20,000 bases of DNA from an uncultured virus (IMG/VR IMGVR_UViG_3300025674_006584) (IMGVR_UViG_3300025674_006584), one strand, 5' to 3'. Shown: positions 2,949-15,675, counted from the stretch's first letter. A program made the numbers and translations. Notes: a model not told the origin generated them from the sequence alone.

Positions 2949-3995
2949 ATGAAAAAAGTATTAATGGTATTGGGATTGGCCTTAACATCCCTAATTGGTT
3001 TTTCTCAGTCCACTGTTGTGGATGTAATCGTTGGTAGTGAAGACCATACATTATTAGAAGCCGCTGTTATTGAGGCAGGGCTAGTTGAAGCGTTAAGTGA
3101 TACCACAGGTACATTTACAGTATTTGCACCTACCGATGATGCAATTACAAACTTGGTTTATGAATTAGGTATTACACCCGAAGAGTTATTGGCACTTGAA
3201 GGGTTGGGTGATATCTTATTGTACCATGTTGTTAACGCAATTGCATTGAGTGGTGATTTAATGGATGGTGATACCTTTGAAACACTCTTGGGTGAGGATA
3301 TTACTATCGCACTTACTGATAGTACTGTTATGGTTAATAACGCAATGGTTACTGTTGCTGACATTACAACAGATAATGGTGTTGTTCACGTTATCGACGC
3401 GGTACTTCTTCCACCTACCGAACCTGTAGTAACGGCAGTATGGGATTGGATTGAATCAAGTGATGTCCATAACTACCTCGAAGCTGCAGTTATCGCAGGA
3501 GGTCTACAAGAGACTTTAGAGGGTGAAGGTACCTTTACAGTATTTGCACCAACTGACGATGCGTTTGTTGATTTGGCAACCACGTTGGGTGTTGAAGTTA
3601 CTGACCTTTTGGCTCTTCCTAACTTGACTGACATTCTTTTGTATCACGTCTTGGGTACTACTGTTATGAGTACCGACTTGTATGACGGTTTGGAAGCAAC
3701 CACAGTAGGTGGTGGTACCTTGACTATCGGTGTTGGTGAAACAGTGACTGTAAACGAAACTGCAACTGTTGTGTTGGTTGATTTGGAAGCACAAAACGGT
3801 GTTGTTCACGTTATCGACGAGGTACTATTGGATAACACCCCTAATAGTGTCGGTGAGATTCAACCAACAGATGTTAACTATGATGGGTTCTACTACAACA
3901 TCATGGGTCAAAGGTTCGATAGTATATTGGACATTCCATTCGGTAGTGTATACATCTACAATGGTAAGAAGTATATTAGGACTGAAGATAGATAA
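2949..3995 (+). CDS. secreted fasciclin (2x FAS1) protein with T9SS-like C-terminal domain
   Basis: Signal peptide MKKVLMVLGLALTSLIGFSQ; two copies of FTVFAPTDDA...ILLYHV...NGVVHVID; C-terminus YYNIMGQRF...GSVYIYNGKKY. Confidence 0.93.
   Translation: MKKVLMVLGLALTSLIGFSQSTVVDVIVGSEDHTLLEAAVIEAGLVEALSDTTGTFTVFAPTDDAITNLVYELGITPEELLALEGLGDILLYHVVNAIALSGDLMDGDTFETLLGEDITIALTDSTVMVNNAMVTVADITTDNGVVHVIDAVLLPPTEPVVTAVWDWIESSDVHNYLEAAVIAGGLQETLEGEGTFTVFAPTDDAFVDLATTLGVEVTDLLALPNLTDILLYHVLGTTVMSTDLYDGLEATTVGGGTLTIGVGETVTVNETATVVLVDLEAQNGVVHVIDEVLLDNTPNSVGEIQPTDVNYDGFYYNIMGQRFDSILDIPFGSVYIYNGKKYIRTEDR
3108..3826 (+). repeat. intragenic duplication of the FAS1 domain (420 nt period)
   Basis: 3108-3142 resembles 3528-3562, and GGTGTTGTTCACGTTATCGACG at 3378 recurs at 3798; both offsets are exactly 420 nt. 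Confidence 0.85.
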
Positions 3996-4078: not shown

Positions 4079-4396
4079 ATGAGACAATTTAGAATAGATG
4101 ACTCAGAGAGAAATAGAATTTTAAATCTCCACGAGAATGCAACTAAAAAACAATACCTAAGTGAACAAGGTGGTAAATGTTTACCTATAAATCAAGTTAT
4201 TGGTATTGAAAATTTCGTTAAAGGTAATTTTGATTCACTTACAAATATTATGGGACAAAAGATTAGTGAGGTTTGTGAAAGTAATTCATTTGGTGATATC
4301 GCAGAATACACATTCACTATGGAAAGTAACCCTAACTTAACAGTGGCAAGTTTTAAAATTGATGGAGACTTAACACCAAAAGAATCAGGAGCATGA
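4079..4396 (+). CDS. hypothetical phage protein with N-terminal leader (..ERNRILNLHE..YLSEQ)
   Basis: 105 aa ORF with ATGA coupling to the next gene. Confidence 0.75.
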   Translation: MRQFRIDDSERNRILNLHENATKKQYLSEQGGKCLPINQVIGIENFVKGNFDSLTNIMGQKISEVCESNSFGDIAEYTFTMESNPNLTVASFKIDGDLTPKESGA

Positions 4397-5877
4397 AAAC
4401 AATACTAAAAGAAACGGGATTAAGAAATATCAAGGCGCTTGCAGATAGATACAATAAAGCTAAGATATATTTCCACCAAGATTTAGATGGTGTAACTACT
4501 GCATTGGCAATGAAAAACTATTTGGAAAATAACGGAATAGAAGTTGTTGATGCAGAGATAATTCAATATGGTGACAAAGAGTTTGCCGTTAAAAAGTTAG
4601 ATGCTCAAGGAGATACAATGCCAGTTTTGGTTGATTTCGCTCACGGTAAACCCATGTTTGTTGTTCATACTGACCACCACGATAGTCAAACTGGTGTGGA
4701 AGGAGACACATCTACATCATTCAGACCATCACGTTCAAACGTTGCAACACTCTCTCAGATAATGTCACCTACAGATATATTTCCATCTGAAGATATTACA
4801 TTAATTTCTACAGTTGACTCAGCTGATTTTGCGAGGTTTGGATTAAAACCTGAAGATATTATGAATTTTGTTTTTAAATTACAAAAAGATAAGAATTTAC
4901 AACAAAACAAAATGGCATTAGGATTAGCCACTAACAAACTATTGTTAGCTTTTAAAAATAAACCTGGTTTCTTAGAAGAGTTGGTAATGACATCAGAACC
5001 ATCTTTAATGAATATATTTCAAAACATTAATAGAATTGCTAAAAGAGAAAATTTAGCCTTCCAAGACAGACTTGAAAAAGGTTTAGAATTAAATAAATGG
5101 GGTAAACCAAATAGAAAGCCTTATGCATCACCTGAAGAAATGTCTGCAAATCAAAAAGATTATGTAGAGAAACAAGCGGAAAGTGATAAAGTATATGTTG
5201 ATGACGGTATTATAGTACAGTATGGAGGTGGTTCTATGTTTAAACCTGGTTCATATGACAGGTACACCCCATTTAAGAATAACCCTGATGCTGATTTCTT
5301 AGTTATTGCATGGCCTATGGGTTTAGTACAGGCAAGTTGTAACCCATTTAAAAGTGAAAGAGAATTGAAGGGTGTAAACTTAGGTGAGATAGCACAGGAA
5401 GTTTTAAGTAAATGGGAAGGACAGCTAAAAGATAAGATTATACCATTATCAACAATAAAATGGATTTCTGAATCAGGTAAATCTTTCGACGAAGAGTCAG
5501 TAGGATTTACCAATGCAGATTTAGAAGCATTTTATGGGGACAAAGTACGTTCGATGGAAGGTGGTGAACAATATATGGATAAGTTAAAAGATATAATGAA
5601 TAAACCTAATAATGAACTTACTGAAAATGAATGGGGAATATTGGATAAGTTAGGTGTCCCTGCTTGGGAAATGATTCAGGCTAATTCAGGAGGACATAAA
5701 TGTATTACAAATATTTCGGCACTTAATTATTTTGGTAGAAGTAAAAGACCACCACTACCTGATATTAAAAGAGGTAAGAAAGAAGGTGATTCACCATATG
5801 TGAAGTTTACCAAAATGATACAAAAAAGATTTGTTGAATTATTAAAACAAAAAATACAAGAAAGTAAATCAAATTAA
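4393..5877 (+). CDS. DHH-superfamily phosphoesterase
   Basis: Motifs FHQDLDG (DxD), VDFAH, TDHHD and a C-terminal SGGH (DHHA1-like). Confidence 0.8.
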   Translation: MKTILKETGLRNIKALADRYNKAKIYFHQDLDGVTTALAMKNYLENNGIEVVDAEIIQYGDKEFAVKKLDAQGDTMPVLVDFAHGKPMFVVHTDHHDSQTGVEGDTSTSFRPSRSNVATLSQIMSPTDIFPSEDITLISTVDSADFARFGLKPEDIMNFVFKLQKDKNLQQNKMALGLATNKLLLAFKNKPGFLEELVMTSEPSLMNIFQNINRIAKRENLAFQDRLEKGLELNKWGKPNRKPYASPEEMSANQKDYVEKQAESDKVYVDDGIIVQYGGGSMFKPGSYDRYTPFKNNPDADFLVIAWPMGLVQASCNPFKSERELKGVNLGEIAQEVLSKWEGQLKDKIIPLSTIKWISESGKSFDEESVGFTNADLEAFYGDKVRSMEGGEQYMDKLKDIMNKPNNELTENEWGILDKLGVPAWEMIQANSGGHKCITNISALNYFGRSKRPPLPDIKRGKKEGDSPYVKFTKMIQKRFVELLKQKIQESKSN

Positions 5878-6225
5878 AGAAAAGGAGACAGTGTCTCCTT
5901 TTTTAATACCTAATTTTTTACAAGTACCACCAGCAACTTCTAAAACCTCACTACCAAAACCCTTATAAGAAACACAATTATATTTTTGATTACATGGAGG
6001 ACAATCATGATGAATCTCATTTATAGTACCTTTATTAATTATTATTATGTCCAATGGTATAATACAGTTATACATCCAAAAACTTTGTTCAGTGGATTCT
6101 GGCATAATAAAAAACATACCATTAAAATTTTCATCGAATCTTTTTTTCATCATACCTTCAGATATTGAAGTGGGTGATGCACAAAGTTTGACTTTAAATA
6201 TATTATTGTCTATTATTATTTTCAT
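5869..6225 (-). CDS. DUF192 family protein
   Basis: GMM..NGMFF..SFWMYNCIIPLDII..VLEVAGG..GIKKGD. The start is re-called to ATG at 6225 (118 aa), because the longer ORF overlaps the Nudix gene. Confidence 0.88.
   Translation of the reverse strand: MKIIIDNNIFKVKLCASPTSISEGMMKKRFDENFNGMFFIMPESTEQSFWMYNCIIPLDIIIINKGTINEIHHDCPPCNQKYNCVSYKGFGSEVLEVAGGTCKKLGIKKGDTVSFSLI
5880..5904 (+). terminator. intrinsic terminator embedded in the convergent DUF192 coding sequence
   Basis: AAAAGGAGAC-AGT-GTCTCCTTTTTT immediately after the DHH stop codon. Confidence 0.7.
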
Positions 6226-6236
6226 ATTTATAAATA
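6225..6236. promoter_or_regulatory. palindromic TATTTATAAATA (bidirectional TATTTATA motif) between divergent genes
   Basis: Perfect palindrome between DUF192 (-) and Nudix (+). Confidence 0.55.
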
Positions 6237-6251
6237 TATTGAAACAGTAAT

Positions 6252-6659
6252 ATGAAAAAATATGCAGGTATAATTGTAAGATGTAACAATAAAGTTTTGT
6301 TATGTAAAAGAAATAATGAAGGCACACTACCTGGTTTTTGGTCTTGCCCTGGTGGTAAAATGGAAGATGGTGAGACATCTAAAGAAGCCGCTATAAGAGA
6401 ATTTATGGAAGAAACAGACTTACCAATCTACGGTAAAATCGATTTTGCTGCTGCGATAAAAAGATACACTAGAGATGGACAGACAGTTAAAGGTTTAATG
6501 TATTGTTATTTACTGGATGTTGAAGAAGAAGTATATCCTGATTTGGATAATGCTATAGATGGTGATGAACACATAGAATGTGGGTACTATGATAAAGACA
6601 ACTTACCTACACCGATGACTAAACAATTTAATAAACTATTAAATATAATATTAAAATGA
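6252..6659 (+). CDS. Nudix hydrolase
   Basis: Nudix box PGGKMEDGETSKEAAIREFMEET. Confidence 0.92.
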   Translation: MKKYAGIIVRCNNKVLLCKRNNEGTLPGFWSCPGGKMEDGETSKEAAIREFMEETDLPIYGKIDFAAAIKRYTRDGQTVKGLMYCYLLDVEEEVYPDLDNAIDGDEHIECGYYDKDNLPTPMTKQFNKLLNIILK

Positions 6660-6874
6660 AAAACAAATTATTCGACGCTTTAGAGAAAAAATATGAAGCA
6701 ATCAAAAGTGAATGTGAAGCAACATTAGAGGTGTATTTTAATAATCCTATGGGTATTGGAGAACATCCAGGAATTATTGAAGAAATGGATAAATTATTTG
6801 AGAGATACGCAACCGCTGAAGGTAATTTAGAGGTCTTGAGAAAGAATTTTTCCGAATACGATACAGAAGAATAA
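6656..6874 (+). CDS. small conserved-type phage hypothetical protein
   Basis: 72 aa helical protein with a GIGEHP motif; ATGA overlap with the Nudix gene. Confidence 0.75.
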   Translation: MKNKLFDALEKKYEAIKSECEATLEVYFNNPMGIGEHPGIIEEMDKLFERYATAEGNLEVLRKNFSEYDTEE

Positions 6875-6891
6875 AAAAGTTTTGTTTTTAG

Positions 6892-6921
6892 TTGAATAAT
6901 TAAAACTTTTTTGTATATTTG
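6892..6921 (+). promoter_or_regulatory. Bacteroidota housekeeping-sigma promoter P1
   Basis: TTG (6892-6894)-19 nt-TATATTTG (6914-6921). Confidence 0.6.
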
Positions 6922-6929
6922 TAAAACTT

Positions 6930-6957
6930 TTGACAGATAAGGGTATATTTATATACT
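6930..6957 (+). promoter_or_regulatory. sigma70-like promoter overlapping a TATTTATA motif
   Basis: TTGACA-16 nt-TATACT, with TATTTATA at 6946-6953. Confidence 0.45.
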
Positions 6958-6984
6958 ACAATCAGAAAAAAAGTTTAAAAAAAA

Positions 6985-7016
6985 TTTGACAGATTGAAAA
7001 ATATGTTTTAAATTTG
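6985..7016 (+). promoter_or_regulatory. Bacteroidota housekeeping-sigma promoter P2
   Basis: TTTG (6985-6988)-20 nt-TAAATTTG (7009-7016), an exact consensus match. Confidence 0.7.
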
Positions 7017-7022
7017 TCAAAC

Positions 7023-7034
7023 GTTCTTTGAAAA
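7023..7034 (+). promoter_or_regulatory. boxA-like antitermination element
   Basis: GTTCTTTGAAAA directly downstream of P2, resembling the rrn leader boxA. Confidence 0.6.
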
Positions 7035-7049
7035 TATTAATGACGAACC

Positions 7050-7862
7050 TTCACTGAAAGAGTTTCCTAAAAAGATTAACCCCCTTTTTTCATTCAAAAA
7101 CAGTGAACAAGTAGTTATCGGTGGTTTAGCATCGTTAGATAACCCTGGCAACAGGACTAAAGGGACAGAATGGGATTTAGCAATCCTTGGAAGTTCGCAG
7201 TCGTATGGCTGACAACTAAACAAAGTATCTACGACCCGTACCTCAAGGGCAACTGCTGAGGGGTTAGGGTTCATCTGAATGAGTGGACATTCGGGTGTGA
7301 GATGGAGACATCAACAGGAGAAGATACAGGTGACGGTTCGACACTCACTGCTATGGGTTGTAGAGCTGGGTACCAGTCTGAGGGGTTACCTCAGGGACGA
7401 GTGGAAACTCGGAACCTACCGTAGTCCTGACTGACCGTTAACTTGCAGGTTAACAGAGAGGTGTGAAGCATTCTGTACTCCAAAGGTATGGACCTTCTCC
7501 CGAAGCACATCTTTCATAAATCCACATTTGCTAATTTTAATCTAAATTAAAACAAGCGAAAGTCTTCGGGCGTTGATGACGAAAGGTGTCTAACACTTCG
7601 GACCTTAGTCAACGAAGTCATCCCTTGAACCGCAAGTTCTCGGATGTCGATAATGAAACAACTCGTGGGTTGGCCGACCCTTAGTGAGACCGCAAGTCTT
7701 GAGAGATTGAAGTAGTTGTCGAGTAGTTATCAACGATACGAGTGGTAGCCGTTAGTTACCGACACTGACTCGATACTCCTGTCAATGGAGTGGATACGTG
7801 GGGAATTATCTAACTATAATCCCACAAAAGACGAGTTGTCAAACGTGTAATCTCAGCGTCCT
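7050..7862 (+). ncRNA. large structured non-coding RNA, GOLLD-like
   Basis: About 810 nt with no credible ORF and raised GC (31/60 at 7321-7380 vs 19/60 at 7981-8040). GNRA hairpins: CCTG-GCAA-CAGG 7144, GATG-GAGA-CATC 7301, CGAGT-GGAA-ACTCG 7398. Long-range helices: 7571-7580/7726-7735 and 7456-7465/7506-7515. Flanked by promoters and a terminator. The 3' part (CCGACACTGAC..GTGGATAC..TGTAATCTCAG) resembles GOLLD from memory. Confidence is higher for 'structured ncRNA' than for the family name. Confidence 0.8.
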
Positions 7863-7896
7863 TAACCCCCATATATATAAAATATATATCTTCCTT

Positions 7897-7926
7897 AACC
7901 TCAGCTGTAGTGGCTGAGGTTTTTTT
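7897..7926 (+). terminator. intrinsic terminator closing the ncRNA transcript
   Basis: AACCTCAGC-TGTAGTG-GCTGAGGTT followed by a T-run. Confidence 0.88.
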
Positions 7927-7936
7927 CTTTTATAGA

Positions 7937-7944
7937 TATTTATA
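7937..7944 (+). promoter_or_regulatory. TATTTATA putative phage promoter
   Basis: Lies 4 nt upstream of ATG 7949 and just after the terminator. Confidence 0.5.
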
Positions 7945-7948
7945 ACTA

Positions 7949-8686
7949 ATGAAAGACCTAATTAGAAAAATACTAAGAGAAGAATACTCAGGTACTATTG
8001 ATTATTCATATGATGATATGAGCAAGGCATTTAAGGATGTATTCTCAGATTATAAAAGAGATGAGACAGCCAAATATCTTGAAGGTATAGTAGGTATACA
8101 TACTATAGGTGAACGTATGGGTAAAAAACACATTGATTGGTCAATAATCAATTTCTTTGATTCTAATAGGACATTAAAACCAATTGTTTTAAGAGATTTA
8201 AAATCTATAGAATTTGATAATATTGTTGATGGTTTGAAACAATTGTTAAGTGATGAAGTAAAACTTAAAGGTTACTTAGATTTAGTATGGGATAAAATTA
8301 AAAGAGGTTTTGAAGCTGAAAATAAATTCGTAGATAGATTAATAGAAAAAAATAAGAACGTTGAATATTCAGGTGAACCTGGTACTAAAGAGGATAAATA
8401 TAGTGGTGTTGATGCAAAAGTGGGTGGAAAAGGAATACAAGTAAAACATGCAAATTCAGTTAAAAAATTATTCACAAACAATGAGGGTAAAGAATTTTAT
8501 CAAGTAATAATAAAGGGAACAAAAGCACCAAACTACAAACAAAAAAATAAAGTTAATTTTTTGGCTTTTTATGTCCCTAATGAAGACACATTCTTCTTAT
8601 TTCAAAATTCAGGTTACTCCCAAAATTACGATAATAATAAAAGAATTAATATTCTTACCTTTAATAGAAAACCTTGGGAAATATGA
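7949..8686 (+). CDS. hypothetical protein, possible PD-(D/E)XK nuclease fold
   Basis: GFEAE helix ... EDKYSGVD-x7-IQVK; basic C-terminal half; N-terminal MKDLIRKILREE leader. Confidence 0.55.
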   Translation: MKDLIRKILREEYSGTIDYSYDDMSKAFKDVFSDYKRDETAKYLEGIVGIHTIGERMGKKHIDWSIINFFDSNRTLKPIVLRDLKSIEFDNIVDGLKQLLSDEVKLKGYLDLVWDKIKRGFEAENKFVDRLIEKNKNVEYSGEPGTKEDKYSGVDAKVGGKGIQVKHANSVKKLFTNNEGKEFYQVIIKGTKAPNYKQKNKVNFLAFYVPNEDTFFLFQNSGYSQNYDNNKRINILTFNRKPWEI

Positions 8687-9048
8687 ACGAAGTACCTGAA
8701 ATATTAAAAAAACAAATTGATGATTTATTTGTTGGTATTGAAGGTCATGAGTTACATGACAGAGATTTACCTGGGTGGTTTACAGATAGTATAGTGTTTC
8801 ATAGAAATGGTAAACCTCTATTTATGGTGAGTAGAAACATTATGATGGGAATCGACGTTAGAATATTCCCATCAATGTCAAATGTTATTTTATTTGGATA
8901 TGAACACTCACCTGAGATGGAAGAGTATTTTGAAGAAAAATTAAGAAATGAGTTAAATTTAGACTTCGATATGTCTTATGTAATGAATAGAGAGACAGAG
9001 AAAAAATATCTCGAAGTACTAATCCCACTTTTAAAAGGAGAGGACTAA
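8683..9048 (+). CDS. hypothetical protein
   Basis: Start re-called to ATG 8683 (ATGA overlap with the upstream stop). Confidence 0.7.
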   Translation: MNEVPEILKKQIDDLFVGIEGHELHDRDLPGWFTDSIVFHRNGKPLFMVSRNIMMGIDVRIFPSMSNVILFGYEHSPEMEEYFEEKLRNELNLDFDMSYVMNRETEKKYLEVLIPLLKGED

Positions 9049-11283: not shown

Positions 11284-11518
11284 TATTAGTGAGGAAGAGT
11301 TTGATGAAGACCACTCAATGGATATGTTATTAAACGATATGATTAATAAATTAAGAACCGTTAGAGTTAGATTCGCAAACGAGTCAAACTACATAGTTTT
11401 AAATGGATTTCAGTTGGAAAATTTTGAAAAGATTGAGGAGTTTGAAGGGGAGGTTTATGGGATTTATAAAGGACAACATTTGATGATTGACAAAGAAGAT
11501 TACAAAAATTTGGTATGA
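11276..11518 (+). CDS. hypothetical protein
   Basis: 80 aa ORF overlapping both neighbours. Confidence 0.65.
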   Translation: MNNISEEEFDEDHSMDMLLNDMINKLRTVRVRFANESNYIVLNGFQLENFEKIEEFEGEVYGIYKGQHLMIDKEDYKNLV

Positions 11519-12555
11519 TGAACAAATTAGATAAACAATATCAGGAACTACTAAAGACAATAATAGAATATGGTGTAGATAAAAAAGATAGAACTGGAAC
11601 GGGTACTAAATCTATCTTTGGTTATACGATACGTCATAATATGAAAGAAGGATTCCCTCTTCTAACTACTAAAAAAATGGCTATTAAGCCACTTATGACT
11701 GAGTTAAAGTGGTTTTTAAAGGGAGATACTAATATAAGGTATTTAATTGAGAACAACTGTAAGATTTGGAACGGTGACGCTTATAAAAATTATAAATTAA
11801 AAAACTTATTTGCCACTGATGTTGATTATCTAACAATGGAGGAGTTTGTTGAACAAATCATATCAGATGATAAGTTTGCTAAGTTGTATGGTGAGTTAGG
11901 GCCTGTATATGGGAAACAATGGAAAATGTGGGACAAATATGACCATGAACTTATAGATAAAGATAAGTTTCCAAATGTCAAATCAAGTGTAGACCAAATA
12001 CAAAATCTAATTGAACAATTAAAAGAAAACCCAGACTCAAGAAGATTAATGGTAAGTGCATGGAACCCTGGTGATATTGATAAGATGGTATTACCTCCCT
12101 GTCATTACGGATTCCAAGTATATACAAGAGAGTTAAACTTAGATGAAAGAATAGACATATATAATAAAGGTGTTAACCCTATGAGTCGTTCAACAGATTA
12201 TTTCCATGAACACATGGACGTATACGGTATTCCAAGACGTGAGATTTCACTAATGTGGAATCAGAGGAGTGTTGACACCTTTTTAGGGTTACCCTTCAAT
12301 ATTGCGTCTTATGCAATGTTATTAGAAATTATTGCAGATGAGGTAAATATGGTACCTGGAGATTTAATTGGTAATTTAGGCGATGTACATCTTTATAATA
12401 ATCATATTGAACAAGCTAAAGAGCAAATAACAAGAGAAGGTTATAAATTACCTAATCTACATCTTATTAGTCAAGATATTTTAAATGGAGAATTTGACTA
12501 TAAAATTAATAATTATGAGTCACACCCAACTATTAAAGCACCGCTAAGTAACTAA
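11515..12555 (+). CDS. thyA: thymidylate synthase
   Basis: Motifs DRTGTGT, FPLLTTKK, LGPVYGKQW, DSRRLMVSAWN, LPPCH, QRSVDTFLGLPFNIASY and GDVHLYNNH. Confidence 0.97.
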   Translation: MMNKLDKQYQELLKTIIEYGVDKKDRTGTGTKSIFGYTIRHNMKEGFPLLTTKKMAIKPLMTELKWFLKGDTNIRYLIENNCKIWNGDAYKNYKLKNLFATDVDYLTMEEFVEQIISDDKFAKLYGELGPVYGKQWKMWDKYDHELIDKDKFPNVKSSVDQIQNLIEQLKENPDSRRLMVSAWNPGDIDKMVLPPCHYGFQVYTRELNLDERIDIYNKGVNPMSRSTDYFHEHMDVYGIPRREISLMWNQRSVDTFLGLPFNIASYAMLLEIIADEVNMVPGDLIGNLGDVHLYNNHIEQAKEQITREGYKLPNLHLISQDILNGEFDYKINNYESHPTIKAPLSN

Positions 12556-13924: not shown

Positions 13925-14932
13925 ATGATTGAATACGCAGATATTATAGTCGATTTACAGGCAGGCGACACAGGAAAAGGAAAAGTCGCACACAGTTTGG
14001 CAAAAACTGATAATGAATACACTCACGTAATAAGATACAATGGAGGTGGTAATGCAGGACACACCATTTACCACGATGGTGTTAAGTACGTAACACACTA
14101 CATACCTGTAGGTGTTATATATGGACTTAAGTCAGTTATCGGACCTGGTTGTGTAGTAAATCCTGAAAAACTTGAAGAAGAGATAAAGGAGTTAGAAAAA
14201 GGAGGATTCAAAGTAAGAGAGAACCTACTAATTGACAGAAGGGTACATATAACCAAACCTGAATACATTGAAGAAGATTCAAAAGACGAAAAGATTGGTA
14301 CCACCAAAACAGGTAACGGTCAAACATATAGAGAAAAATATAACAGAACAGGATTACGTGCTGAAGATTGTGAAGAAGTATTTGATTATGTAATTGATAT
14401 ATACGATGAACTTCATGGTAAAGAAGATGTTAAAATTCTATTTGAAGGTGCTCAGGGTTTTGAATTAGATATAGATTGGGGTGATTATCCTTACGTTACA
14501 TCATCACATTGTACAGTTGCAGGTGCATTACAGAACGGAGTACCTTCACAAAAGGTAAGAAAGGTATATGGTGTTGCGAAGGCTTATAGAACTTATGTAG
14601 GTAACAAAAAGTTTGAAGACACATCAAGAACCTTTAACCTTATTAGAGAAGTAGGAAAAGAATATGGGGCCACAACAGGGAGACCAAGACAAATTGGTTG
14701 GTTTGATATTGACGATGTTAAAAAAGCAATTAATATTAATGGAGTGACCAACTTGGTAGTCAACAAAATTGATGTATTGGAACAAACAAAGTCATTTAAA
14801 ATGATTGACAATGGAAACCTATTAACCTTCAATGATAAAAGGTTATTTAAAGGTTTTATTATTCAAGAACTTTTAAAATGTTGTCCGACACTCAAAGAAG
14901 TTGCATTTAGTGAGTCACCATATGAAATATAA
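13925..14932 (+). CDS. purA: adenylosuccinate synthetase (short form)
   Basis: Motifs GDTGKGK, GGGNAGHT, IGTTKTG, EGAQG, YPYVTSS, GATTGRPR and NKIDVL. Confidence 0.93.
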   Translation: MIEYADIIVDLQAGDTGKGKVAHSLAKTDNEYTHVIRYNGGGNAGHTIYHDGVKYVTHYIPVGVIYGLKSVIGPGCVVNPEKLEEEIKELEKGGFKVRENLLIDRRVHITKPEYIEEDSKDEKIGTTKTGNGQTYREKYNRTGLRAEDCEEVFDYVIDIYDELHGKEDVKILFEGAQGFELDIDWGDYPYVTSSHCTVAGALQNGVPSQKVRKVYGVAKAYRTYVGNKKFEDTSRTFNLIREVGKEYGATTGRPRQIGWFDIDDVKKAININGVTNLVVNKIDVLEQTKSFKMIDNGNLLTFNDKRLFKGFIIQELLKCCPTLKEVAFSESPYEI

Positions 14933-14944
14933 AAACTGAAATAA

Positions 14945-15301
14945 ATGGAATTTCACTCAGCAAAAAGACTTTCGGAAGAGGGTCAACAAAAAGTGGCACT
15001 CGTAGATATAGACGAAACTATATGTTACTACGAAGACCCTGAAAATAGAAGGTATAATCTTTCAATACCGATACAGGAAAATATTGATAAGATTAATAAA
15101 TTATATGACGAAGGTTGGAAGATAGTGTATTGGACGGCAAGAGGTTCAGTTTCTAAGAAAGACTATACTGATTACACGAGAGAACAACTTACAGAATGGG
15201 GATGTAAATTTCATGATTTAGTTACAGGAATGAGCCCGAACCCTAAACCACATTTTGACTTAGTTATTGACGACAAGGCGAAACGAATTGAGGAATTGTG
15301 A
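14945..15301 (+). CDS. capless HAD-superfamily phosphatase
   Basis: Motifs VDIDETI (DxDxT), YWTARG and KP..LVIDDKA. Confidence 0.85.
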   Translation: MEFHSAKRLSEEGQQKVALVDIDETICYYEDPENRRYNLSIPIQENIDKINKLYDEGWKIVYWTARGSVSKKDYTDYTREQLTEWGCKFHDLVTGMSPNPKPHFDLVIDDKAKRIEEL

Positions 15302-15675
15302 AGGCTATAGTTGCAGTAAATAATTTAGGTTTTATAGGTTTAGATGACAAATTACTTTGGTACAATAAAGAGGATTTAAGACACTTTAAAAACATGACCT
15401 ATGGTAGTACACTATTAGTGGGATATCGTACTGCTATGGCTCTCCCACCACTTAAAAACAGGGAGTTGATTATATTTGACAGGAGGGAACATTCACCAAC
15501 CCATTACTATGAGTGTGAATGGTGTATTGGTGGTAAAAAAACATATGAAAAGTTTTGTGACTCATTTACAGAGTTACATATTTCACACATCAACAATAAT
15601 GAAATTGGTAATGTAACTTTTCCAAATTTATATAAACTAAATACTAATTGTAAAATATTTAATTATTATTTTTAA
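15298..15675 (+). CDS. folA: dihydrofolate reductase (compact)
   Basis: AIVAV..GFIG..LLW..EDLRHFKNMT..LVGYRT..IGGKKTY; GTG start. Confidence 0.88.
   Translation: MKAIVAVNNLGFIGLDDKLLWYNKEDLRHFKNMTYGSTLLVGYRTAMALPPLKNRELIIFDRREHSPTHYYECEWCIGGKKTYEKFCDSFTELHISHINNNEIGNVTFPNLYKLNTNCKIFNYYF

Follow-up and report, generated by a model that had tools for sequence, protein, structure and literature searches.

A stand-alone GOLLD-family RNA gene with its own transcription signals in an uncultured virus related to large phages

The locus and its RNA family

The stretch of DNA analysed here, hereafter the window, comprises 20,000 nucleotides (nt) of an uncultured virus (IMG/VR IMGVR_UViG_3300025674_006584), and the element under study, on its plus strand, is a gene whose GOLLD RNA has a length of about 810 nt. 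The gene lies within the largest stretch of the window that is free of long open reading frames (ORFs), at 6875-7948 (1074 nt), between a gene that ends at 6874 and one that starts at 7949, and this stretch is overlapped only by ORFs of 85 (minus strand), 51, 42 and 40 aa. The GC content of positions 7049-7857 is 45.4%, the highest of all 809-nt segments, against 31.4% in the remaining window. A preliminary description, made from the sequence alone, had singled out the region as the sole long ORF-free stretch and as richer in GC than its flanks, and both observations are borne out. The single-sequence fold has an energy of -245 kcal/mol, compared with -226.2 +/- 7.2 for 20 shuffled sequences (z = -2.6).

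The Rfam GOLLD model RF02032 matches positions 7456-7859 of the plus strand over its full length (model positions 1-416 of 416), with a score of 301.0 bits (cut-off 150; E-value 1.2e-85), and it is the only Rfam family found at gathering level in the 20-kb window. The assignment to the GOLLD class, which the preliminary description had proposed together with a comparison to Rfam, is thereby confirmed: the window RNA is a bona fide member, a new copy of a known family. When 6850-7960 was searched in E-value mode, other Rfam families gave four matches of 14-24 bits, below their cut-offs of 42-56, and ROOL gave no match even in this mode. ROOL, another large RNA of phages, likewise builds cages from RNA only and has an internal disordered linker, but it is described as unrelated to GOLLD in sequence and fold (PMC12286853). 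A blastn search of 7050-7930 against 50,697 phage records returned no match.

Relatives were collected from viral contigs with a 15-nt pattern taken from the 3' domain, which occurs at no fewer than 120 loci; the following counts refer to the matches listed. A profile (nhmmer) of the window 3' half matched 63 of 120 listed loci, including all 61 that were also matched by the 5' half (7050-7455); the two loci with a 3' match only have flanks too short to reveal a 5' half. The closest among the matches listed is L119 (94.3% identity over 611 nt), and further close relatives among them are L010 (82.8% over 1209 nt) and L050 (78.5% over 1127 nt). All 20 relatives tested passed the RF02032 cut-off, with 259.6-308.2 bits. 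A scan with a second pattern gave 21 loci, and six of the 20 tested with Rfam are GOLLD RNAs. Three of these (L252, L257 and L262) belong to the subfamily of the window, with 249-254 bits for the 5' profile, and the other three (L251, L264 and L268) are similar to the published GOLLD env-38, their 5' domain being near, by eye, to the env-38 sequence in the supplement of the corresponding paper. The 15-nt pattern was also found at 121 loci in bacterial and archaeal genomes, but none of the 121 was supported by nhmmer and none of 20 tested by Rfam; all of these are chance occurrences, and the host could not be read from prophages. A search of viral contigs for relatives by means of the downstream 245-aa protein found none.

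Of 34 distinct full-length copies, 29 were aligned with the window (L079, L004, L033, L040 and L043 were excluded as near-duplicate or short), and counts out of 30 below refer to these aligned sequences, window included. No ORF is conserved across the GOLLD region among them: the longest open stretch (46-103 aa) switches strand and frame from sequence to sequence, and the 85-aa minus-strand ORF of the window is interrupted by at least two stops in the best frame in 26 of 29 relatives. The non-coding reading of the preliminary description, which had named a conserved protein-coding signal as a point to check, therefore stands. RNAalifold predicts 218 pairs in 37 helices for the alignment. Both sides change in 99 of the 218 pairs, against 50.8 +/- 3.4 in shuffles (none of 500 reaches 99) and only 13-27 when the partners are slid by 1-3 columns, and standard pairs occupy 97.6% of the alignment cells, against 34-43% with slid partners. 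The covariation that the same description had suggested looking for is thus present and bears out a conserved fold. Helices 2-19 are contributed by the 5' domain and helices 21-37 by the 3' domain, and both sets covary. The 5' half required this separate test because RF02032 represents no more than the conserved 3' half of GOLLD RNAs; its conservation and covariation, together with RNA contigs over 7049-7870, agree with the published build of about 800 nt, in which a less conserved 5' domain precedes the conserved 3' domain (PMC12286853).

Domains and fold

Two GOLLD RNAs with published structures serve as references. Env-38, from a marine metagenome, has 833 nt and forms a 14-mer cage (Kretsch et al. 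2025, PMC12286853; PDB 9MEE according to PMC12990946), in which the 5' region (1-420) makes the caps and the 3' region (421-833), with a disordered linker at 497-538, makes the rings (PMC12286853). The Streptococcus agalactiae GOLLD, with 700 nt, assembles as a 12-mer at full length and mostly as a 10-mer when reduced to its 3' domain, and the differing copy number is put down to differences in the 5' domain (PMC12990946). The window RNA resembles env-38 in its length of about 810 nt, in having a 5' and a 3' region of about 400 nt each, and in a variable linker situated about 60 nt after the start of the 3' region; one and the same Rfam model describes the 3' domain of both. The S. agalactiae RNA belongs to the same family but lacks P9, P11a-c and P21b (PMC12990946), and on this description it is set apart from the window RNA, which has both of the loop hairpins that follow the first ACCGCAAGU hairpin.

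The conserved 3' domain (7456-7859, plus strand) begins with helix 7456-7465/7506-7515, which is paired in 100% of cases with four both-sided pairs and is also the first helix of the Rfam model. A helix drawn by RNAalifold between 7458-7464 and 7886-7892 (helix 20; one both-sided pair, 92% pairing) was dropped in its favour. The linker follows at 7516-7560, with a GC content of 22%, and is enclosed by helix 7499-7505/7564-7570 (CCCGAAG/CUUCGGG, helix 23), which has four both-sided pairs. Its length varies among the relatives, and in four of 30 an additional hairpin is inserted. The linker had been described as an AU-rich element that splits the RNA into its 5' and 3' domains; it is AU-rich and variable in length as expected, but it does not mark the domain boundary, since 7456, about 60 nt upstream of it, is where the match to the Rfam model starts, and so does the 3' region as published. 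The equivalent linker of env-38 is reported to be disordered and to point into the cage (PMC12286853). Further downstream, the long-range helix 7571-7580/7726-7735 (helix 24) is also 100% paired, with two both-sided and three one-sided changes. Two pseudoknots had been suggested in this domain. The one between GGTGTC at 7585 and GACACT at 7761 is retained: it is invariant in all 30 sequences, partly because the search pattern selected for it, and a compensatory change is seen across subfamilies, its counterparts being GAUGUC/GACAUU in L251 and GgugaC/GucacU in the Rfam consensus. The other, between GAGATTG at 7703 and TAATCTC at 7848, is paired in only 69.5% of cases and has no both-sided change; instead, 7703-7709 is paired locally with 7659-7664 (helix 29, four both-sided pairs).

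Three hairpins of a putative contact type lie at 7619-7701 on the plus strand, at 7619-7646 (loop ACCGCAAGU), 7667-7680 (a GGCC palindrome at 7672-7675, including G7673 and C7674) and 7685-7701 (again loop ACCGCAAGU), and their stems covary (helices 27, 30 and 31). The first and the third contain the hairpin sequence ACCGCAAGT (7629-7637 and 7689-7697), whose double use had been noticed beforehand. All three loop hairpins of the env-38 3' domain are present in the window, including the second ACCGCAAGU hairpin, which is missing from the S. agalactiae RNA, and on our reading the loops would correspond to the env-38 loops L20, L21a and L21b, which make kissing contacts between chains. All 30 sequences have the same GC at the centre of the palindrome, as expected of the self-pairing loop that forms bridge B8 in env-38. 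In addition, G7556-C7557 could pair with G7632-C7633 in the place where env-38 forms bridge B7 (G546-A547/U617-C618), if we read the alignment correctly.

The 5' domain (plus strand) can be divided into three parts, all of which covary. The first (7117-7226, helices 2-9) consists of a hairpin at 7119-7134, a GCAA hairpin at 7144-7155, a helix at 7163-7196 and a hairpin at 7197-7213. In the second (7225-7330, helices 10-15), helix 7225-7230/7322-7327, which was already recognised from the single sequence and has two both-sided pairs (helix 10), encloses three hairpins including a GAGA hairpin at 7301-7312. The last part (7329-7455, helices 16-19) is made of helices 7329-7374, 7376-7378/7433-7435 and 7383-7427 and a hairpin at 7437-7454. 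Among the three GNRA hairpins previously listed, all of which exist in the window, those with GCAA and GAGA loops are kept in all 30 sequences with compensatory changes (helices 4 and 15), whereas the third, with a GGAA loop at 7398-7411 within helix 7383-7427, is an optional element found in only four of 30 (the window, L010, L056 and L078). A proposed helix between TGACGGTT at 7331 and GACCGTTA at 7433 is not supported: it is paired in 80.8% of cases and shows no both-sided change, one of its pairs is broken in 28 of the 30 sequences and another in 18, and its 3' arm overlaps the covarying hairpin 7437-7454 and helix 7376-7378/7433-7435. It contains an invariant 5-bp core (ACGGU/ACCGU), which as such can show no covariation.

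At the sequence level, the 5' domains of the window type and of the env-38-like loci are not recognisably similar: nhmmer finds no match between them, and a local alignment of the window with the L251 5' domain scores 18, against 19.5 +/- 1.9 for shuffles. Covariance models of the three parts give a different picture for the beginning of the domain; their E-values are rough owing to a shortened calibration, and L251 stands in for env-38, whose own sequence was compared only by eye. The model of the first part (24 sequences) matches over its full length the start of the L251 5' domain with 22.3 bits (E = 0.004; runner-up 8.5 bits), and that of the second part matches directly after it, again in full, with 37.6 bits (E = 4.5e-10). 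The model of the last part (7329-7456) reaches 102.4 bits on the subfamily members L252 and L257, but at best 7.0 bits, at another position, in the env-38-like loci, where no counterpart of 7329-7455 was detected. The suggestion of a divergent 5' domain thus holds for the last 125 nt or so, while the first 210 nt or so (7117-7330) align structurally with L251, L264 and L268. As far as can be detected, the last part of the L251 5' domain is unrelated to that of the window and longer, at about 195 against 127 nt. Since the 5' domain of the family is described as variable, this unmatched last third is no bar to GOLLD membership. The GCAA and GAGA tetraloops of the window align with the L251 hairpins CUACGAAAGUAG and GUUCGGAAGAAC, and near-identical strings are seen by eye in the env-38 sequence, whose tetraloop adenines A34/A35 and A203/A204 form the inter-chain bridges B1 and B3 (PMC12286853, Supplementary Table 2); the two window loops may therefore be the docking tetraloops of these bridges. 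A correspondence drawn by eye between the env-38 loop 251-257 and window 7246-7258 was contradicted by the covariance alignment of the second part and was dropped.

Transcription, genomic setting and host

The gene appears to have its own transcription signals, as had been supposed. Upstream, a promoter-like pair on the plus strand (6985-7016) consists of TTTG at 6985-6988, a 20-nt spacer and TAAATTTG at 7009-7016, an arrangement that we take to be the -33/-7 type of Bacteroidota. TAnnTTTG occurs at the aligned position in all 30 sequences, preceded 17-23 nt upstream by TTG in all 30 and by strict TTTG in 25. The window contains no excess of this motif (29 matches, 31.7 +/- 5.9 expected), and so its conservation counts and its mere presence does not. 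It is followed by a conserved element, GTTCTTTGAAAATATTA (7023-7040, plus strand), present as GTTCTTTG(AAA) in all 30 sequences, which is located downstream of the promoter box, ahead of where the first RNA contigs start, and could be a leader or part of the promoter; a similar AGTTCTTTAAAAGA precedes the env-38-like GOLLD of L251. Downstream, an intrinsic terminator (7897-7929, plus strand) with an 11-bp hairpin and a T run is found in 30 of 30, with compensatory changes (CUCAG/CUGAG, CUCGG/CCGAG, CUUAA/UUAAG). Other observations concern the upstream region. A leader stem, TTCACTG 7050-7056/CAGTGAA 7101-7107, encloses a conserved GATTAACCCCC at 7084-7094 and shows double changes by eye (CTCACTG/CAGTGAG in L050 and L075, CCTTTGG/CAAAGG in L017), while other relatives have another leader with a UUCG-type hairpin. 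A second promoter-like stretch (6914-6957) combines TATATTTG at 6914-6921 with TTGACA-16-TATACT at 6930-6957, an 11/12 match to the sigma-70 consensus; its core ATATTTATAT does not vary among those relatives whose sequence extends to this point, and the stretch has no RNA contig cover, which is not evidence either way.

The preliminary description had pointed to metatranscriptome reads as a further check, and contigs from four metatranscriptome runs of four studies cover the plus-strand span 7049-7870, which is taken as the approximate extent of the stable RNA. In run X16, a single contig of 811 nt extends over 7061-7870 with 16 differing letters and one gap, and in run X18 a contig begins at 7049 and has no differences. 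The contigs of X18 and X19 end at 7857 and 7856 and then continue into letters that we presume to be sequencing adapter, a weak hint to the 3' end. The flanks 6000-7009 and 7919-8423 have no contigs in the four RNA runs, although lack of cover is not evidence, and at 8424-8827 run X15 has a depth of 1-3, contig depth being unsuited to ranking genes. In six RNA runs, 16-23% of the sampled words of 6000-9000 are present, and up to 98% in DNA runs; the GOLLD makes up about 27% of this 3-kb stretch.

A position next to tRNA genes or tRNA islands is frequent among GOLLD RNAs, though not defining, and the gene in the window departs from it. ARAGORN finds no tRNA and no transfer-messenger RNA (tmRNA) in the 20-kb window, hence none in the linker, and no tRNA in the loci of 31 relatives, in agreement with the earlier remark that no tRNA is nearby. 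Four large relatives (G001-G004) carry one GOLLD each, and no tRNA cluster comes closer to it than 37 kb (clusters at 164-176 kb and GOLLD at 213 kb in G001, 268 and 14 kb in G002, 101-103 and 150.5 kb in G003, 127-152 and 71 kb in G004). In the subfamily loci L252, L257 and L262, a tRNA is encoded upstream of the GOLLD on the same strand, 93 nt before the 5'-domain match in L257. Env-38 lies downstream of tRNA-Met (PMC12286853), the env-38-like loci sit in tRNA arrays with tmRNA, and mycobacterial and prophage GOLLDs are part of tRNA arrays, the linker itself containing a tRNA in some of them (Morgado et al. 2020, via PMC12990946); neither arrangement is seen in the window. In L251 (1300-3028, minus strand), as in L264 and L268, the env-38-like GOLLD is part of a dense RNA island; that of L251 is preceded by a tRNA and by a tmRNA that the end of the locus truncates, and it is followed by one tRNA directly behind the 3' end and by eight more downstream, while its upstream spacers contain three ATTTGGTAGTT repeats and a TAnnTTTA-like box.

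All relatives originate from the viral contig collection, and the records of the four large ones have sizes of 270 kb (88% complete), 297 kb (99%, CheckV), 199 kb (66%) and 152 kb (52%). A gene for the ribosomal protein bS21 is present in three of the four (G001:C1:117239-117394, G002:C1:215166-215324 and G003:C1:57423-57575). Phages that encode bS21 and are predicted to infect freshwater Bacteroidetes have genomes of 293-331 kb with a GC content of 31.0-33.7% and 5-25 tRNAs (PMC9723584). The lineage of the window resembles them in size, GC, tRNA number, bS21 and freshwater run labels, a fit that does not prove a single clade; the text of that article mentions neither GOLLD nor non-coding RNA under the terms ncRNA or non-coding. 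A Shine-Dalgarno-like motif precedes only one of 29 ORFs in the window, and this near-absence is as expected for Bacteroidota. Together with the 270- and 297-kb records and the TAnnTTTG -7 box, it upholds the idea of a Bacteroidota-type jumbo phage for the lineage, jumbo size being established for the relatives and not for the window genome. The host of this large freshwater phage lineage is probably a member of the Bacteroidota.

The genes flanking the GOLLD are of phage type (DUF3310, DNA methylase, ThyA, dihydrofolate reductase, NUDIX) and also include host-like metabolic ones. The window encodes an ATP-dependent phosphoenolpyruvate carboxykinase (1365-2840, Pfam E-value 1e-143), whose nearest look-alike cluster has Bacteroidota as commonest phylum, a weak indication, followed by a protein with two fasciclin domains (2949-3995), in which no NCBIfam secretion-tail domain was found. 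On the other side of the GOLLD lie genes for thymidylate synthase (11515-12555), a short adenylosuccinate synthetase (13925-14932) and a short dihydrofolate reductase (15298-15675). A DUF192 ORF on the minus strand, counted from its first ATG (5869-6378), shares 127 nt with the beginning of the NUDIX gene (6252-6659, plus strand), and because the Pfam match covers only residues 61-166, its true start is probably further in. A 494-aa protein (4393-5877) has a weak DHH/RecJ-like N-terminus (Pfam E-value 3.6e-4, below the cut-off). Homologues 70-90% identical to it are encoded a few kb from a GOLLD in four large viral records, and a homologue lies near the GOLLD in all five records of relatives searched. 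More distant ones occur in two uncultured phage records of 635-642 kb (39-40% identity over 98-99% of the length) and, as partial matches with 28% identity, in two 735-kb records.

Cage formation and significance of the subfamily

We consider it likely, with a probability of about 0.9, that the window carries a single-copy, stand-alone GOLLD gene of about 810 nt with its own signals, whose product, by homology, would most likely assemble into an RNA cage. The RNA, at roughly 7049-7860 of the plus strand, would be transcribed from the promoter-like element at 6985-7016, and transcription would end at the terminator at 7897-7929. The assembly cap would be made by the 5' domain (about 7117-7455) and the ring by the 3' domain (7456-7859), with the AU-rich linker inside it, as is the case in the solved GOLLDs, and by analogy with both known structures the copies would build a closed, protein-free cage held together by tetraloop-to-helix dockings and kissing loops.

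Several points weigh against this reading. Cage formation, its copy number and any biological role are inferred, and the copy number already varies among the solved GOLLDs (12-mer, mostly 10-mer for the 3' domain alone, 14-mer; PMC12990946). The segment 7329-7455 appears to have no env-38 counterpart, so the contacts of the cap may not be transferable from env-38, in which the last part of the 5' domain carries the cap bridges B3-B5 (PMC12286853, supplement). The RNA evidence consists of assembled contigs, from which neither the strand nor the ends nor the level of a transcript can be proved, and DNA may be present in RNA libraries. Moreover, the -7 box predicts a start at about 7021-7024, while the contigs begin at 7049-7061, a gap of about 25 nt that could be due to 5' processing, lost contig ends or a misplaced promoter call. 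Finally, the alignment used for counting covariation was also the one from which the structure had been predicted, a bias in favour of covariation; the fold signal is nevertheless judged to be real because the slid-partner controls are low and double changes are many.

The possibility that the region is another large RNA, such as ROOL, a group I or II intron, RNase P or tmRNA, or a degraded protein gene, can be practically dismissed, as GOLLD is the only family above its cut-off over 6850-7960, ARAGORN reports no tmRNA in the window and no ORF is conserved. Very improbable, if a little less so, is a long structured 5' leader with a cis-regulatory role for the gene at 7949-8686. That gene is indeed on the same strand, with its start codon 90 nt downstream of the region, but the terminator hairpin and T run found in all 30 sequences lie in between, and the Rfam model stops at 7859. 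The sequence behind the terminator also differs, with a TAnnTTTG box of its own, in 25 of 29 relatives (by eye), a gene start like that of the window being kept only in L010, L017, L058 and L050.

A more serious alternative, although still an unlikely one, is that the RNA belongs to the GOLLD family but forms no closed cage in the cell, where it would act on its own as a monomer or within a ribonucleoprotein and might bind, for instance, ribosomes or another host factor during infection. GOLLD has no established function, and Kretsch et al. refer to pull-down assays with ribosome binding (PMC12286853). The bS21 gene in three of the four large records suggests a lineage that acts on ribosomes (PMC9723584), but in G001 it lies about 96 kb from the GOLLD, and nothing links the two beyond their common genome. 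The last third of the 5' domain, which makes cap contacts in env-38, differs in the window, whereas the window retains the loop nucleotides of the 3' domain that make inter-chain contacts. No protein is needed for multimers of either solved GOLLD, and those of env-38 form down to 12.5 nM (PMC12286853, PMC12990946), which favours the cage. Within the cage interpretation, a more specific proposal can be made only tentatively, and we regard it as possible without holding it for probable: the subfamily might represent a third structural class of GOLLD, with a ring of the env-38 type, the first two thirds of its cap and a shorter, unrelated last third, hence a copy number or geometry other than those of the 12-mer and 14-mer, carried by bS21-encoding freshwater jumbo phages of Bacteroidota in which the gene is uncoupled from tRNAs.

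As judged from the sequences, the window GOLLD is a member of a well-populated subfamily whose predicted cap departs from env-38 in its last third. For annotation, Rfam covers only the 3' half of these RNAs, and the approximately 400 nt upstream should not be taken for a separate RNA. GOLLD is among the few natural RNAs known to form closed cages without protein, and the subfamily would offer a natural variant of the cap domain for the study of how the cap controls cage size. The existence of a stand-alone, conserved subfamily located tens of kb from tRNA clusters weakens the idea of a constant cooperation between GOLLD and tRNAs, and if the proposal of a third class is true, the core role of GOLLD would not be tied to tRNA handling.

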